Shown piece by piece: positions 15,009 to 23,305 of a stretch of 64,000 bases of DNA. A model generated the notes under the pieces. It worked only from the letters and a program-made list of their open reading frames with translations. It was not told where the DNA came from and did no database searches. The stretch's first letter is position 1. Each line of letters starts with the position of its first letter. The stretch covers positions 32,396 to 96,395 of the forward strand of contig NZ_BTTW01000008.1 of the NCBI RefSeq assembly GCF_036245865.1, in the 5' to 3' direction. The translations under genes were made by a program, and so were the position numbers. Source of the stretch: Corallococcus caeni. Lineage in GTDB: Bacteria; Myxococcota; Myxococcia; Myxococcales; Myxococcaceae.

Positions 15009-15752
15009 TTGAAGTCGACAGGTAGCATTGAAAGCAATTCGCCACGACGGCTGGGGGGCCATCGCATGGCAGCGAATCAATCGGCAGTTCGTATTTCTAT
15101 TCTCGAAGGACCGTGGGCGGCCTGGCAGGGCTTGTCCGATGGGCTTCGGGGTGAGGGTCATTCCACTTCAGTGACGCGCGACGTGCGCGGCTTCCTGGAC
15201 GGACTCGGCACGGATCCACCGCAGGTGGCCATCCTCGACGTGGAGAGCGACGGCGAGGCCGCCATCGGATGCTCCGTGACGGAGGGGCTCAACCTGCTGC
15301 GTGAGGCCCGCAAGCGCCGGCTGGAAGTGCGCATGCTGCTCTTGTCCGCGGTGAGCACGCCGGAGGTCATCTCCCAGTGCTTCGACGAAGGGGCCTCCGG
15401 GTATCTCTTCCGCGCGGGGCTGGGCGTGAACGCGGTGTCCTCCGCGGTCCAGTCGCTGGTGCGGGGCGAGCGCCTCTTCCCGGTGCAACTGTTGCGCAAC
15501 GACTTCGAGCATCCGCCGGTGACGTCACCCACGGCGAGCGTGCTCTTGCTGCTCACGCAGCGGGAGCGCGAGGTGCTCCAGTACGTGGCGGGCGGGGCGG
15601 ACAACCTGAAGATCGCCGCGCACCTTCAAATCGCCGAGCGCACCGTGAAGTCACACGTCACGCAGCTCTACCGCAAGCTGGGCGCGGAGAACCGCACCCA
15701 GCTTGCCCTGCGCGCCTGCCACCTGGGCGTCAGGCCTCCGCCGGACCTCTAG
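15009..15752 (+). CDS. LuxR/FixJ-type response regulator (REC-like domain + LuxR HTH); alternative start 15066
   Basis: REVLQYVAGGADNLKIAAHLQIAERTVKSHVTQLYRKLG HTH; N-terminal receiver-like region QVAILDVESDGEAA. Confidence 0.7.
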   Translation: MKSTGSIESNSPRRLGGHRMAANQSAVRISILEGPWAAWQGLSDGLRGEGHSTSVTRDVRGFLDGLGTDPPQVAILDVESDGEAAIGCSVTEGLNLLREARKRRLEVRMLLLSAVSTPEVISQCFDEGASGYLFRAGLGVNAVSSAVQSLVRGERLFPVQLLRNDFEHPPVTSPTASVLLLLTQREREVLQYVAGGADNLKIAAHLQIAERTVKSHVTQLYRKLGAENRTQLALRACHLGVRPPPDL

Positions 15753-15813: not shown

Positions 15814-16041
15814 TCAGTTCTTGTTGCGGGCCGCGTCCTCTTCCATCTTCTTGCGGAGGCTCAGCGGACGCATGTCCGTCCAGACCTCCTTGATGTACTC
15901 CAGGCACTCGGCCTTCAGGCCCTGCTTGCCGGCGTCCTTCCAGCCCAGCGCGTTCTCACGGTCCGCGGGCCAGATGGAGTACTGCTCTTCGTGGTTGACG
16001 ACGACCTTGTAGATGGTCGTGTCTTCGCGCTCGTCGCTCAT
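15814..16041 (-). CDS. mbtH: MbtH-like protein (stand-alone)
   Basis: 75 aa [38 protein letters not shown]... with canonical MbtH tryptophans; the long ORF 15814..17142 is trimmed to this. Confidence 0.85.
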
Positions 16042-18721: not shown

Positions 18722-19615
18722 CTACGTCGGCCCGCCCATGACTTCCATCGTGTGCTTGAGCCGCTCCAGGCCCAGCCGCACCAGGGCGCCGCGCAGGTCG
18801 GGCTGGCCCAGGAAGGCCTTCTTGAACACGTCGCGCTCCAGCTTGAGGAGCGTGCAGGGCGTCACGGTGCGCACGGTGGCGGTGGCCAGCCGGCTGCGCA
18901 AGAGGGAGATCTCCCCGAACAGGGCGCCTTCCTCCAGCGTGGGGTAGGGGGACTGGCGGCCGTCGCCGTGCGTGTGGAAGACCTCGCACTGGCCCCGGAT
19001 GAGGACGTAGAGCGCGTCGCCCGGCTGGCCCCGGGTGAGCAGCGTCTCTCCGGCGGGGACGGTGCAGGGGACGAAGGCGTCACCCAGCTCGTGCTGCACC
19101 TCCGGGGGCAGGGCGGCGATGAGCGGGTTGCTGCGCAGCGCGTCCGCGAGCAGGCGCTCCCGGGCGGTGACCTGCATCTGCTCGCCCTTGACGCCGTAGT
19201 CCTTGCCCAGCTCCCGGACGCCGGCCTGGGTGAGCTCCAGCAGCACGGCGTCCTCCACCGTCACGATGGTGGCGGTGCGCTGCGTGCCGGTGAGCAGCGC
19301 CAGCTCGCCGAAGAACTCGCCGGCGCCCAGGCGGCCGACCTCCGTGTTGGCGCCGTTGTCGCCGCCGCGCAGCACCGCGACGCGGCCCTCCAGCACGACG
19401 AACATCGAATGGCCCGGGTCGCCCTCGCGCACGACGATCTGGCCCGCGGGCAGGTAGCGCGTGCAGACGGGCGGCGGCGCGGGGGCACCTTCCGCATCCG
19501 TCGGAGCGCCTGCCGCCGTGGGCGCGGCGGAGGTCGCGGGCGTCTGCACGGCGGAGGTGGCCGGGGCGGACGGGTGGGCGGACAGCAGGGCCTGCAGGCG
19601 CGCGAACAGGGACAT
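18722..19615 (-). CDS. Tandem cyclic-nucleotide-binding (cNMP) domain protein
   Basis: Two CAP-like domains: GEFFGELALLTGTQRTATIVTVED and GALFGEISLLRSRLATATVRTVT; ATG at 19615 preferred over the TTG at 19624. Confidence 0.8.
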   Translation of the reverse strand: MSLFARLQALLSAHPSAPATSAVQTPATSAAPTAAGAPTDAEGAPAPPPVCTRYLPAGQIVVREGDPGHSMFVVLEGRVAVLRGGDNGANTEVGRLGAGEFFGELALLTGTQRTATIVTVEDAVLLELTQAGVRELGKDYGVKGEQMQVTARERLLADALRSNPLIAALPPEVQHELGDAFVPCTVPAGETLLTRGQPGDALYVLIRGQCEVFHTHGDGRQSPYPTLEEGALFGEISLLRSRLATATVRTVTPCTLLKLERDVFKKAFLGQPDLRGALVRLGLERLKHTMEVMGGPT

Positions 19616-19830
19616 GGTGGCCAAATGCTACCCGGGGCGCCCCGGCGGAAACTGTGAAGCGCTTCACAGGCAGCGCGGAGGTGGCCTGAAAGACAGCCAG
19701 GCAGGCGCTGGGCGCTCATTGAACAGGGATTGACCGCTGCTGTCACGTCTGTGTTTCGCCCTTCCTGACGCACGGCGACGGGCGCCGGGGATGGCGTGGG
19801 CGGACCGGGACGCCCTACAGTCCCTGGCCC

Positions 19831-20826
19831 ATGGGAGACACGCTGGACGTCGTGGTGGACCTGGGAGACGTGGGGGAGACGCCCGCGGACGCCGTGCTGC
19901 TGAAGTACGCGCAGGGCTTCCACGGGGCGGACGGCGCGGTGTCGCGCCGGCTGGAGGCGGCGGGCGTGGCCATGGACGCCTTCGACCTGCTCCCCGGGGA
20001 CCACCGCTTCATCGACACGCGAAGGAGCCTGGGGGCTCCGCTGGTGCTCTTCCTGGGCACGGTGCGCCTGCGGCAGTTCGGCTACCACGAGATCCGCCAG
20101 TTCTCCGTGCGCGCGCTCCAGCTCCTGGAGCCCCGGCACGAGGTGCGTCACCTCGCGTGCACCGTGCATGGCCCCAACTATGGGCTGGACGAGGACGAGG
20201 CCGTGCTGGCCCTGGTGGGCGGCTTCGTGGACGCGTTCCAGCGCGGCAGCGGGCCGCGCGACCTCACGCGCATCACGGTGGTGGAGCTGAACCCCAAGCG
20301 CGTGGAGCGGCTGCGCAAGGCCATCGCGCTGGGGCTCGGGCTCACGCCGGGCGTGGAGCCGCTGATGGGGGCCACGGGCTTCCGCGTGCGGCGGACGTCC
20401 CGCTTCGTCCAGGCGCCGCCCATGGCGAGCGCGGGCGCGAACTCCAACGAGAAGCCCCACGCCTTCGTGGCGATGCCCTTCGCGCCGGAGTTGGAGGACA
20501 CCTACCACTACGGCATCCTGAACCCCGTGAAGGCGGCCGGCCTGCTGTGCGAGCGGGTGGACCAGGCCGTCTTCGACGGCCCCATCATCCAGCGCATCCG
20601 GGACCGCATCGACACGGCGAAGGTCGTCATCGCGGACCTGTCATTGGCGAACCCCAATGTCTATCTGGAGGTGGGCTATGCCTGGGGACGCGGCAAGCCC
20701 ACCCTGATGCTGGTGCGCGACGTGAAGGAGCTGCGCTTCGATGTCTCTAGCTACCGGTGCCTCGTCTACCGGAACATCCGGCACCTGGAGGAGATGCTGA
20801 CGCAGGAGCTGCAGCGCATCGTCTGA
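19831..20826 (+). CDS. Two-domain protein: N-terminal macro-like (ADP-ribose-binding-like) domain + C-terminal nucleoside 2-deoxyribosyltransferase-like (NDT/DRHyd) domain
   Basis: N-term LDVVVDLGDVGETPADAVLLKYAQGFHGADGAVSRRLEAAG resembles macro VxxGDIT..ADAIVNAAN..GGGV; C-term FVAMPF....VIADLSLANPNVYLEVGYAWGRGKP matches NDT motif (YFAGPF...D.G.ElGyA.a.GKp). Confidence 0.55.
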   Translation: MGDTLDVVVDLGDVGETPADAVLLKYAQGFHGADGAVSRRLEAAGVAMDAFDLLPGDHRFIDTRRSLGAPLVLFLGTVRLRQFGYHEIRQFSVRALQLLEPRHEVRHLACTVHGPNYGLDEDEAVLALVGGFVDAFQRGSGPRDLTRITVVELNPKRVERLRKAIALGLGLTPGVEPLMGATGFRVRRTSRFVQAPPMASAGANSNEKPHAFVAMPFAPELEDTYHYGILNPVKAAGLLCERVDQAVFDGPIIQRIRDRIDTAKVVIADLSLANPNVYLEVGYAWGRGKPTLMLVRDVKELRFDVSSYRCLVYRNIRHLEEMLTQELQRIV

Positions 20827-20839
20827 GATGGGCGAGGGG

Positions 20840-22006
20840 TCAGTAGGGGGCGCAGAGAATGCCCTCGCAGTTACCGGCGCCGTTGTTCCGCGCGACGTTG
20901 CCGCCCCCGTCGTAGGCGGTGGGCGCGTAGATGCCCCAGCCTGTGTTGCCCAGGGCCACGTTGCCAATCACCGTGGGCGTGTGGGGCGGCGGGACGCGGA
21001 GGCCGTCACCGTCGTTGTACAGGAACCGGTTGGCGCGAACGATGCCGGTCTGCGGAAGGGCCACGTAGGGAAGGTTGCTCAAGGTCAACCCTCCCGCGTT
21101 GTTCAAGAAGGTGTTGCCATGGACATAGACCGTGAAGGTGTAGACCTCAAGGCCGCTGCCATTGCCCACGAACAGGTTGTTGACCAGCTCCAGGCTCTGC
21201 GGCACCCAAACCGGCTCTGCCGTGGTCCCGAACGAGGTGTTGTTGGCGAGAAGGGAGTCCTCGAACCGCAAGTGACCGCAGAAGTCAGGTCTCCCACCGG
21301 TGTCAACCGCTCTGACCACAGCCTGGTTCCGCGTGAAGATGCTTGAACGGACGCGCAGACTGCCACTGAAGCAGTCGATGACGACATCGTTCGAGGTGAA
21401 GGTCGAATCGAGGATGTCGGCGATGTGGCCTTGCAGGAGGAAAACGTTGCCATTGTTCTCGAAATGGCTCGACCTCACGTCGAACAACCCATAGGACTGC
21501 TCGAAGTCATTGAAAAAAACGTAATTGCTGCCAATGAAACGGGAGTGGGTGACGAGGAAGTAAGTGCTGGTGAAGTCGTAGACTGCGACGCCGTTGTCCT
21601 CGAACTTGAGTTCGTGCAGCCGCAGATAGCTTGCGCCTTCGGTAAAGATGCTTATCGCGAAGCCGCGAATCGTGCCGTTGCGCACCATGCTGTCGCCGGA
21701 AACCACGATGCCGTATCCGCCCGGTTGGGACAGACCCGAGTCGCGCACGGTGTGGCCCCCCAGATCGAGGACGATGCCATCACCTTCGATGGTGAGCGCG
21801 GGCCCGTCCGTGCCCGAGCAGGACAGGTCATGCGTGAGCTTCGTGTGTTGGGTGATGACGTCGCCACACTGGACGTCGCATTCGACCGGCTTCGCTTGCT
21901 GGAACCGGGCGTCGAGTGGCTCCCTGTCTGCCGCGAGCGCCGGGGGCGCTCCCAGGGCCAGTCCCGCGATTGCCATTGTGACGAAGAAGCCCATTACCTT
22001 ATGCAT
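20840..22006 (-). CDS. Secreted right-handed parallel beta-helix repeat protein (paralogue 1)
   Basis: Signal peptide MHKVMGFFVTMAIAGLALGAPPALA; beta-helix N/G/T-rich repeats; C-terminal NNGAGNCEGILCAPY; ORF trimmed to Met45. Confidence 0.7.
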   Translation of the reverse strand: MHKVMGFFVTMAIAGLALGAPPALAADREPLDARFQQAKPVECDVQCGDVITQHTKLTHDLSCSGTDGPALTIEGDGIVLDLGGHTVRDSGLSQPGGYGIVVSGDSMVRNGTIRGFAISIFTEGASYLRLHELKFEDNGVAVYDFTSTYFLVTHSRFIGSNYVFFNDFEQSYGLFDVRSSHFENNGNVFLLQGHIADILDSTFTSNDVVIDCFSGSLRVRSSIFTRNQAVVRAVDTGGRPDFCGHLRFEDSLLANNTSFGTTAEPVWVPQSLELVNNLFVGNGSGLEVYTFTVYVHGNTFLNNAGGLTLSNLPYVALPQTGIVRANRFLYNDGDGLRVPPPHTPTVIGNVALGNTGWGIYAPTAYDGGGNVARNNGAGNCEGILCAPY

Positions 22007-22150
22007 GCCGCCTCCAGCCGGAAGTCCTTCCGGCGATCGGCGCAATGCTAGACAAGGACGGGTGGCCGGGGTCCTGCCTGTCAGTGTCAGCAGGGCCGCC
22101 AGAAGCTGACGGCTCGGAGGCACGATGGGGCGGGACAAGCAGGCGAAGGA

Positions 22151-23305
22151 TCAGTAGGGGGCGCAGGTGACGCCCTCACATTGGCCCGCGCCGTTGTTCC
22201 GCGCGACGTTGCCGCCCCCGTCGTAGGCGGTGGGCGCGTGGATGCCCCAGCCCGTGTTGCCCACGGCCACGTTGCCAATCACCGTGGGCGTGCTGGGCGG
22301 CAGGACGCGCAGGCCGTCACCGTCGTTGTGAAGGAACCGGTTGGCGCGAACGATGCCGGTGAGCCGCTGTCCAGCCACGATGGGAGAGTCGCTGAGGGTC
22401 AGTCCACCCGCGTTGTCCCAGAAGGTGTTGCCATGGATGTAGACCGTGCTGGCTTTGACTGCGAGTCCACCGTCGTTGCCCATGAGCAGGTTGTTGACCA
22501 TCGCCAGGTTCGACACCACTTGCAATCCGAACGAGGTGTTGTTCGCGAGAAGGGAGTCCTCGAACCGAAGCGTATCGCAGAGGAATGGACCTTGGCCGGG
22601 GTCCGCAGCTGAGGCCACGGCCTGGTTCCGTGTGAAGACGCTCGAGCGGACGCGCGTGCTGCCATAGAAACAGTTGATGGCGACCTCGTTCGACGTGAAG
22701 GTCGAGTCGAGGACGTCGGCGGAGTGGCTGTTCAGGAAGATCGCCTGGCCATTGTTCTCGAAATGGCTCGACCTCACGTCGAGCGACCCCGAGGACACGT
22801 CGAACTCACTCAAGAATCCGAAGTCATTGCCAATGAAGCGTGAATGGGTGACGAGGAAGCGGTTGCCCGTGTAGTTGTAGACCGCGACGCCATTGTCCGC
22901 GAACGTGAGCTCGTGCAGCCGCAGATAGCCCGTGGCGACGGTCCGGACACCCTGACCGAAGCCGCGAATCGTGCCGTGGCGCACCATGCTCTCGCCGCTG
23001 ACCACGACGCCCCTTGTGTTGAACCGCTCCGGGCCCGAGCGGCTCACGGTGTGGCCGCCGAGGTCGAGGACGATGCCGTCACCTTCGATGCGGAGCGCGG
23101 GCTCGTCCGTGCCCGGGCATGACAGGTCATGTGTGAGCTTCGTGTGCTGGGTGATGACGTCGCCACACTGAACGTCGCATTCGACAGGCTTCGCTTGCTG
23201 CAACCGGGCGTCGAGCGCCTCCCTGTCCGCCGCGAATGCCGCGGGTGCTCCCAGGAACAGTGCAGCGATGGCCGCCGTGACGGAAAAGCCCTCTGCTTTA
23301 TGCAT
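22151..23305 (-). CDS. Secreted right-handed parallel beta-helix repeat protein (paralogue 2)
   Basis: Near-identical N-terminus and repeats to 20840..22006; C-terminal NNGAGQCEGVTCAPY. Confidence 0.7.
   Translation of the reverse strand: MHKAEGFSVTAAIAALFLGAPAAFAADREALDARLQQAKPVECDVQCGDVITQHTKLTHDLSCPGTDEPALRIEGDGIVLDLGGHTVSRSGPERFNTRGVVVSGESMVRHGTIRGFGQGVRTVATGYLRLHELTFADNGVAVYNYTGNRFLVTHSRFIGNDFGFLSEFDVSSGSLDVRSSHFENNGQAIFLNSHSADVLDSTFTSNEVAINCFYGSTRVRSSVFTRNQAVASAADPGQGPFLCDTLRFEDSLLANNTSFGLQVVSNLAMVNNLLMGNDGGLAVKASTVYIHGNTFWDNAGGLTLSDSPIVAGQRLTGIVRANRFLHNDGDGLRVLPPSTPTVIGNVAVGNTGWGIHAPTAYDGGGNVARNNGAGQCEGVTCAPY

Follow-up and report, generated by a model that had tools for sequence, protein, structure and literature searches.

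A candidate NAD+/ADP-ribose-directed effector family represented by a two-domain Macro-DrHyd protein of Corallococcus caeni

In a 64,000-nucleotide stretch of the Corallococcus caeni genome (the window; contig NZ_BTTW01000008.1 of assembly GCF_036245865.1, positions 32,396 to 96,395 of the forward strand), we analysed a gene, here called X, which encodes an N-terminal macro-fold domain joined to a C-terminal DrHyd domain resembling nucleoside 2-deoxyribosyltransferase (NDT). The conserved residues of both domains and the immune-type fusions of its relatives suggest that X is a self-contained enzyme module directed at NAD+ or an ADP-ribose (ADPr)-type nucleotide, a reading to which we give a probability of roughly one half. 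Both domains and the general logic are already known, and X is present in databases as a conserved hypothetical protein; what appears to be experimentally uncharacterised is the Macro-DrHyd unit, and no text describing it as a unit was found.

Domain structure and conservation of X

The features of X are listed below with their positions in the window (pLDDT, predicted local distance difference test; GC3, GC content at third codon positions).

19831..20826, + strand: gene X, 331-aa Macro-DrHyd (NDT-like) two-domain protein, based on the open reading frame (ORF) list, homologues, orthologue alignment, AlphaFold2 model and GC3
19831..20400, + strand: macro-fold domain, residues 1-190, with D20, K25-Y-A-Q28, G32-A-D34 and T111-x-H113-G114-x3-G118-L-D120-E121 best conserved
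20401..20445, + strand: disordered interdomain linker, residues 191-205, with pLDDT <50 at residues 192-205 and a sequence and length that vary across the family
20446..20823, + strand: DrHyd / NDT-like Rossmannoid domain, residues 206-331, with motifs FVAMPF (strand-1), CERVD244 and N274-P-N276-V-Y-L-E280-V-G-Y-A-W-G
20668..20670, + strand: codon of E280, the predicted catalytic Glu, which aligns with the Glu of MilB 'THVEIGWA'

An earlier reading made from the letters alone (the sequence-only reading) had named X and a divergently oriented gene for a cyclic nucleoside monophosphate (cNMP)-binding protein; both ORFs were found where it placed them, and the peptide strings it quoted occur in their translations. 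X is a real gene, and the observation lies far beyond chance. A word-index search returned 1830 homologues at E<=1e-3, and the 120 listed among them share 55-95% identity with X, mostly over the full length. The start codon agrees with that of the aligned orthologues, and the GC3 of 0.95 matches the surrounding native genes in a window of 65-73% GC. In a scan of one genome per species, the proteins of Corallococcus carmarthensis and C. exercitus were 98-99% identical to X. The orthologue in Myxococcus xanthus is MXAN_3123.

The C-terminal domain showed the DrHyd fold, with the catalytic-type Glu on the helix after strand 4. When a profile of this domain was compared with PDB sequences, its segment '...anpnvylevGyawgrerP...' paired with '...ASPGTHVEIGWASGMGKP...' of MilB, which places E280 on the MilB Glu, and Ala occupies exactly the E280-equivalent position in PDB entry 4ohb, which we take to be an E103A active-site mutant. 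DNPH1, BlsM and BcmB aligned across the same segment. X shares with the cytidine monophosphate (CMP) hydrolases MilB, BcmB and BlsM, and with DNPH1/Rcl and LlNDT, the strand-1 pattern 'xxAxPF' and the helix pattern '...x-E-[LIV]-G-[YW]-A-x-G-x-[KR]-P', with the Glu aligned. Unlike these N-glycosidases, X has Asn at position -6 from the Glu where they have Ser or Asp, scores under the Pfam gathering threshold and is fused to a macro-fold domain, and its relatives are embedded in TIR, EAD or CHAT architectures. Among 155 family members at 36-49% identity, E280 was kept in 143, N276 in 144, G282 in 154 and A284 in all 155, and the strand-1 motif F212-x-A-M-P-F was likewise kept. The C-domain is much more constrained than the N-domain, as seen from the median identity to the query (52% versus 34%) and the mean column identity (63% versus 38%).

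For the N-terminal half, NCBIfam and phmmer against PDB gave no match and neither did Pfam, and its macro identity came to light only through structure prediction. An AlphaFold2 model built from 27 orthologues had a mean pLDDT of 84, and its N-domain showed the three-layer alpha/beta/alpha macro fold, with OiMacroD, PARP14 macro2, macroH2A1.1 and Af1521 as the nearest structural neighbours. A Foldseek search with the model supported both fold calls, and no solved structure containing a macro and a DrHyd domain together was found in this comparison with PDB. The proposal of a macro-like N half and an NDT/DRHyd C half has thus been upheld for both folds, and the C half carries a conserved Glu.

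A profile of the N-domain gave weak matches among PDB sequences, to the macro protein TTHA0132 (E 1.3) and to the N-domain of PepA (E 0.0044). Conservation within the 155 members was highest at D20 (146), K25 (151), G32 (146), D34 (138), H113 (148), G114 (153), G118 (151) and D120 (155/155). These residues map, in a weak alignment with divergent motifs, to the TTHA0132 loops 'D-AIV-NAAN...G-x-G' ('D-x4-NAAN...G-x-G') and 'G-T-G-V-G'. In macrodomains, these two loops form the ADP-ribose cleft. The conserved loop residues argue for a functional ligand pocket in the N-domain of X.

Distribution and domain fusions of the family

When 1.84 billion representatives (clusters at 50% identity) were scanned exhaustively with HMMER, 11,223 proteins reached E<=1e-3 and 394 reached E<=1e-30; of the best 150 of the 394, almost every one covered both domains. 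With one genome per species, relatives of X were found in 402 species genomes, which belong to at least eight phyla plus an archaeon. Within Myxococcota they occur in Corallococcus, Myxococcus, Pyxidicoccus, Citreicoccus, Archangium, Hyalangium, Vitiosangium and Kofleriaceae, and beyond it in Acidobacteriota, Binatia, Gemmatimonadota (Longimicrobium), Bacteroidota, Chloroflexota, Nostocales, Gallionellales, an alphaproteobacterium and Methanosarcina. Stigmatella, Cystobacter, Sorangium, Nannocystis and Anaeromyxobacter were not among the top matches listed, which is not proof of their lacking the gene.

Extra sequence was present in 44 of the best 150 representatives (ca. 30%), and the remaining ca. 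70% are solo forms. In the 44 extended representatives, Pfam detected TIR_2 in 22, CAP12-PCTIR_TIR in six and ThsB_TIR in four, together with EAD7 (four), EAD1 (two), EAD11 (one), the bacterial Death-like domain bDLD1 (one), CHAT (two), DUF4062 (one) and single cases of HTH, HD and astacin domains; a cNMP-binding domain was found in none of the 44. The EAD-fused members have no other enzymatic domain, so the Macro-DrHyd unit itself must be the effector there. In addition, the PADLOC model PDLC00733 'Pycsar effector TIR' matches residues 245-321 of X (E 1.6e-13). The association with nucleotide-centred conflict systems that had been suggested for X was borne out at the level of the family by these fusions and this match, and the N-terminal TIR, EAD, Death-like and CHAT fusions look like the signature of a conflict-system effector module.

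This interpretation agrees with the account of EAD/Death-like/TIR/CHAT-tethered effectors by Kaur, Burroughs, Iyer and Aravind (2020, PMC7159879), who describe EADs as adaptors by which effectors are tethered in the NTP-dependent conflict systems of multicellular prokaryotes and count DRHyd and Macro among the NAD+/ADPr effector domains (see also PMC9503650). As in those systems, the relatives of X carry EAD1, EAD7, EAD11, bDLD1, CHAT and TIR N-termini, and the spread of the family over Myxococcota, Chloroflexota, Nostocales, Acidobacteriota and Methanosarcina fits the multicellular-prokaryote theme of that work. X itself, with 331 residues, differs from the EAD-coupled systems in having no adaptor extension and no STAND, vWA-MoxR or GTPase core nearby. 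In the portions of the article and its supplement that were available, no architecture list names the Macro+DRHyd pair and the text does not single out the fixed unit.

The metagenomic relative P0123 has a single macro domain and, after it, a tandem pair of DrHyd domains, and at the locus of Methanosarcina sp. UBA402 an ORF of 626 aa extends the module at its N-terminus by ca. 285 aa. A scan of viral contigs found no relative of X, and a phage or prophage origin was rejected on this ground.

Proposed activity and comparison with known systems

We propose that the DrHyd domain would be the catalytic part, cleaving or exchanging a base at an N-glycosidic bond, with E280 acting as the nucleophile or as an oxocarbenium-stabilising residue, as in NDT, DNPH1 and MilB. 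Such an NAD+/ADPr-type N-glycosidase or transglycosidase would be the simplest mechanism. The macro domain may dock an ADP-ribose-like moiety, which could be the ADP-ribose half of the substrate, a product or an allosteric signal, and it probably controls activity or oligomerisation. Across bacteria, the Macro-DrHyd unit would serve as an immune or conflict effector, with N-terminal TIR, EAD, Death-like or CHAT domains linking it to its triggers. The protein of Corallococcus would then be an adaptor-less solo form kept at a fixed chromosomal site in Myxococcaceae, with no dedicated partner next to it. Observed in this work are the folds, conserved residues, distribution, fusions and missing synteny; what we infer from these data is an NAD+/ADPr-type substrate, the part played by the macro domain and whether X serves immunity or homeostasis in myxobacteria.

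A parallel in domain pairing is type II Thoeris, in which the macro domain of ThsA, a protein with transmembrane helices, senses ADPr, imidazole adenine dinucleotide (IAD) or histidine-ADP-ribose (His-ADPR) made by TIR enzymes (PMC11204291; 10.64898/2025.12.03.692087), the His-ADPR signal being described in the latter work and a ThsB subfamily with an NDT-like active site in the former. As in X, that system combines a macro domain with an NAD+-processing domain of TIR/NDT type; a bona fide TIR domain is also found in many relatives of X, and the nearest structural neighbours of the X macro domain are the same set as reported for EcThsA-Macro (PMC11204291). X differs in being a single cytosolic polypeptide with no transmembrane effector and in being vertically inherited rather than island-borne. 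No ThsA or ThsB match was found for X with PADLOC, no TIR gene adjoins it, and no hydrophobic segment lies ahead of its macro domain. Membership of X in Thoeris was rejected because it has no TIR neighbour and no ThsA/ThsB match.

Retron Ec86 (Eco1) also contains an NDT-like anti-phage effector, which depletes adenine nucleotides (10.1101/2023.08.16.553469). The NDT-like domain is common to both; Ec86 is controlled by a reverse transcriptase and multicopy single-stranded DNA (msDNA), whereas X has a fused macro domain, and no retron components are present at the X locus.

Several observations weigh against the proposal of an NAD+/ADPr-directed effector. The predicted template modelling score (pTM) of the X model is 0.60, so that the interdomain geometry is uncertain. 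PF05014 (NDT) scored 24.5 bits with the full protein and 26.9 bits with the isolated domain over residues 252-301, below the Pfam gathering score of 28.8 bits, which the relative P0123 exceeds (40.3 bits). Residues 1-178 gave no Pfam match even at E<=10, Macro (PF01661) included. In sequence, the N-domain is equally close to the N-domain of M17 aminopeptidases, which does not bind ADPr, and to true macrodomains, and K-Y-A-Q stands in it in place of the canonical NAAN motif; for these reasons ADPr binding by X is a proposal rather than a proven property. The solo protein also has no obvious trigger or adaptor domain. X is vertically inherited, with stable synteny in Myxococcaceae and native codon usage, which is atypical for defence genes and would fit a housekeeping role equally well. 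Finally, our literature search found no biochemical data for any family member and no paper naming MXAN_3123.

Genomic context and a possible housekeeping role

The surroundings of X were compared by tblastn of the window proteins against 84 loci, with flanks of 6 kb, and by Pfam annotation of selected contexts. Conserved in Myxococcaceae are a convergent D-Ser-dehydratase-like gene downstream of X and a block of GerE, MbtH and Lnb_N genes upstream, an arrangement that reads as ordinary vertical synteny. From one sampled lineage to the next, the other neighbours of X differ. In M. xanthus, the genes upstream of X are ApbA and a styrene-monooxygenase-like gene, and the neighbours in Archangium violaceum and a Kofleriaceae metagenome-assembled genome (MAG) are unrelated. 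Among distant members, one fused to EAD7 lies near PIN/DUF433, DUF6414 and hydrolase genes, one fused to TIR adjoins a DNA methyltransferase gene, and solo forms are surrounded by metabolic genes, with AbiE nearby once. The 69 flanking ORFs of 19 distant loci contained no recurring Pfam family (72 sequences were scanned, three of which were extended X ORFs). A conserved partner gene was rejected for the family, since the EAD7-fused, TIR-fused and solo contexts differ and the Pfam census has no enriched family. No cyclase, TIR or core NTPase (STAND, vWA-MoxR or GTPase) was found among the Pfam-scanned neighbours in the window and the syntenic loci examined.

In A. violaceum and the Kofleriaceae MAG, a same-strand gene without annotation ends 17-36 bp before X (L003 4781-5965, 394 aa, and L004 5154-5984, 276 aa, respectively). 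These genes could be lineage-specific operon partners.

The most serious alternative, which we regard as possible without favouring it, is that X is a housekeeping enzyme of Myxococcaceae for nucleotide or ADPr sanitation or salvage with no conflict role, the immune-type fusions being secondary recruitments; its substrates might be aberrant (deoxy)nucleoside monophosphates, hydrolysed in the manner of DNPH1, or free ADPr, O-acetyl-ADPr or ADPr-1''-phosphate. The sequence-only reading had likewise named an ADP-ribose/NAD salvage enzyme as one possibility. The position of X beside the D-Ser-dehydratase-like gene is stable in Corallococcus, Myxococcus, Pyxidicoccus and Citreicoccus, with orthologue-like divergence, and together with the native GC3, the metabolic or housekeeping neighbours in the window and at several distant loci and the lack of copies on viral contigs it is consistent with such a role. 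The closest solved relatives of the C-domain, MilB, BcmB, BlsM and DNPH1, are likewise nucleotide N-hydrolases. However, relatives with 36-49% identity and identical motifs show this module joined again and again to TIR, EAD, Death-like and CHAT domains, which are not known from housekeeping enzymes. The distribution across phyla is patchy, and the five myxobacterial genera from Stigmatella to Anaeromyxobacter missing among the top matches listed point the same way, within the limit stated above. Moreover, by eye, an invariant Asn at -6 from the Glu replaces the 5'-phosphate-binding Ser of DNPH1 and MilB.

Another alternative, which seems improbable to us, is that neither domain is catalytic: both would just bind nucleotides in the manner of SLOG or TIR-like sensors and pass the signal on through oligomerisation, either to the TIR, CHAT or EAD partners fused to them or, for solo forms, to unlinked partners. 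The macro domains of ThsA are pure binders that oligomerise upon ligand binding (PMC11204291), and inactive sensor versions exist among TDS-clade domains (PMC9503650). On the other hand, >90% of members, the solo forms among them, retain the catalytic-type Glu together with the NPNVYLEVGYAWG motif around it. The EAD-fused members, in which the module must be the effector as argued above, also speak against a mere sensor, and the solo forms that make up ca. 70% of the representatives would be left with no output.

The adjacent tandem-cNMP-binding gene

The gene divergent from X and the region between the two are as follows.

18722..19624, - strand: cytosolic protein of 300 aa with an Ala/Pro-rich N-terminus and two cNMP-binding domains (PF00027 x2, E 5.1e-47)
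19625..19830, no strand assigned: region between the divergent genes, 206 bp long (215 bp when counted from the alternative ATG of the cNMP gene)

The two cNMP-binding (CNB) domains that the sequence-only reading had seen in this neighbour were confirmed by Pfam. Its shared region of 215 bp was reproduced when counted from an in-frame ATG (MSLFARL...) three codons downstream of the TTG at 19624, from which the distance is 206 bp, and the length of the orthologues (293-298 aa) fits a start at this ATG. A scan of the region found no sigma-70-like promoter or intrinsic terminator pattern, which says little at 70% GC in a myxobacterium. The Ala/Pro-rich N-terminus spans ca. 50 aa, and the protein has no output domain, like the regulatory subunit of protein kinase A (PKA); JGI labels its relatives 'cAMP-dependent protein kinase regulator', and more distant relatives bear N-terminal TPR repeats. 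By eye, the first CNB domain retains the Arg of the phosphate-binding cassette (FGELALLTGTQRTAT), and the second reads FGEISLLRSRLATAT, with Ala at the Arg position, and may therefore not bind cNMP.

The sequence-only reading had suggested that this protein could sense a nucleotide signal for X as an N-glycosidase effector, and had named missing synteny of the two genes in other genomes as a refutation. Within the 84 loci, a cNMP orthologue (84-96% identity) was found near X only in Corallococcus, where the cNMP gene directly adjoins X in six of 12 loci and a dienelactone hydrolase (DLH)-type gene lies between them in the other six, as in C. llansteffanensis (cNMP gene, DLH-type hydrolase, X). 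No cNMP orthologue was located within 6 kb of X in Myxococcus (M. xanthus included, by its Pfam-annotated context), Pyxidicoccus, Citreicoccus, Archangium, Hyalangium, Vitiosangium or Kofleriaceae; some Archangium loci have only a 30-33% identical match 4-5 kb away, which in A. violaceum is a TPR-cNMP protein. An orthologue with 60-67% identity and a length of ca. 296 aa does exist in Pyxidicoccus and some Myxococcus species, but beyond 6 kb from X (in P. fallax the two are on different contigs), and the two genes are therefore unlinked there. By that measure of synteny the proposed pairing was largely refuted, and a sensor-effector pair is unsupported because adjacency is confined to one genus, a hydrolase gene interrupts it in half of the loci and no cyclase or TIR gene is nearby. 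On the evidence of the 84-locus tblastn, the Pfam contexts and the unlinked orthologue in Pyxidicoccus and Myxococcus, functional coupling of X to the cNMP gene was rejected, and this gene appears to be a genus-specific neighbour outside the X system.

The same evidence bears on a resemblance to Pycsar. The C-domain of X matches the effector part of PDLC00733, and the cNMP protein matches the sensor part of the PADLOC models PDLC00730-732 and PycTIR; cNMP-binding and DrHyd/TIR-like domains are therefore fused in known Pycsar effectors. X differs from these in that the cNMP domains lie on a separate, divergent protein, the gene pair is unconserved, and a macro domain stands where Pycsar has its cNMP sensor. 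Pfam found no PF00027 domain in X, and no PycC cyclase was present among the annotated neighbours in the window or syntenic loci. Membership of X in Pycsar was rejected because there is no cyclase, no fused cNMP sensor and no conserved pairing across genomes. A split two-gene version, in which the tandem-cNMP protein would sense a cyclic nucleotide and control X as an N-glycosidase effector, could draw on these PADLOC matches and on the shared intergenic region of the divergent pair in the window and five other Corallococcus loci, but it is very unlikely, given the single-genus and often interrupted adjacency, the orthologue located elsewhere in Pyxidicoccus and Myxococcus, the 0/44 fused representatives with a cNMP-binding domain, the lack of a cyclase gene in the neighbourhood and the second CNB domain, by eye without its phosphate-binding Arg. 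Since cNMP-binding proteins are abundant in myxobacteria, a chance neighbour is plausible.

Other genes and records around the locus

Between X and the D-Ser-dehydratase-like gene lie two tandem paralogues of the right-handed beta-helix / NosD type (PF13229, PF05048) at 20840-22138 and 22151-23305, both on the - strand, with N-termini that look like signal peptides by eye. This stretch has a lower GC (0.65-0.67); the loci of C. exercitus, C. interemptor and Myxococcus lack it, and those of C. coralloides and C. aberystwythensis have a single copy. The lower GC and the patchy presence suggest a recent insertion followed by duplication.

Upstream, an MbtH-like ORF of 74 aa (15814-16038, - strand) is concealed where a longer mechanical ORF of 442 aa has its C-terminus; its syntenic counterparts in M. 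xanthus and C. llansteffanensis carry the annotation PF03621 MbtH, and no non-ribosomal peptide synthetase (NRPS) gene was seen among the immediate neighbours examined. The GerE/LuxR-type regulator at 15009-15752 (+ strand) is 87-100% conserved across Myxococcaceae, far above its neighbours. Its receiver domain scores 24.1 bits against a Pfam threshold of 30.2, so that an atypical or degenerate response regulator is conceivable.

Some database titles appear to be taxonomically wrong. 'Comamonas sp. KCTC 72670' carries a Myxococcus-type block of GerE, Lnb_N, X and D-Ser-dehydratase genes at Myxococcus-like identities, and 'uncultured Enterobacterales' MAGs (L055, L056 and L063) have 68-71% GC and relatives of X at 50-52% identity. 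L055 and L056 come from the same MAG as separate contigs and show an identical ORF layout over the locus, and therefore represent a duplicated or redundantly assembled region.

Implications

For annotation, two corrections follow: the database label 'nucleoside 2-deoxyribosyltransferase' conceals the macro domain, and genome records should not carry forward a link between X and the cNMP-binding gene beside it. M. xanthus is genetically tractable, and its solo orthologue MXAN_3123 gives direct access to experiments. The fixed pairing of macro and NDT-like domains mirrors, in one chain, the pairing of the Macro sensor with the NDT-like ThsB of type II Thoeris. A bolder version of the preferred reading, which we advance tentatively and consider rather doubtful, is that Macro-DrHyd might be a widespread, hitherto uncharacterised single-polypeptide NAD+-signalling module, 'Thoeris in one protein', in which the NDT-type domain would produce or break down a conjugate of ADP-ribose and a base through transglycosidation, for detection by the fused macro domain. 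TIR, EAD and CHAT adaptors would have recruited this module in many phyla, and Myxococcaceae would use a domesticated solo copy as a constitutive switch on the chromosome, for immunity or NAD+ homeostasis.

If the reading of X as an NAD+/ADPr-directed enzyme module is true, the family would represent a large uncharacterised group of effectors, with at least 394 clusters at 50% identity and members in 402 species genomes, an archaeon included, and would join the TIR, SIR2, SLOG and retron-NDT effectors. Macro-DrHyd could then reveal a new ADPr-derived signal or a new mode of gating an N-glycosidase.

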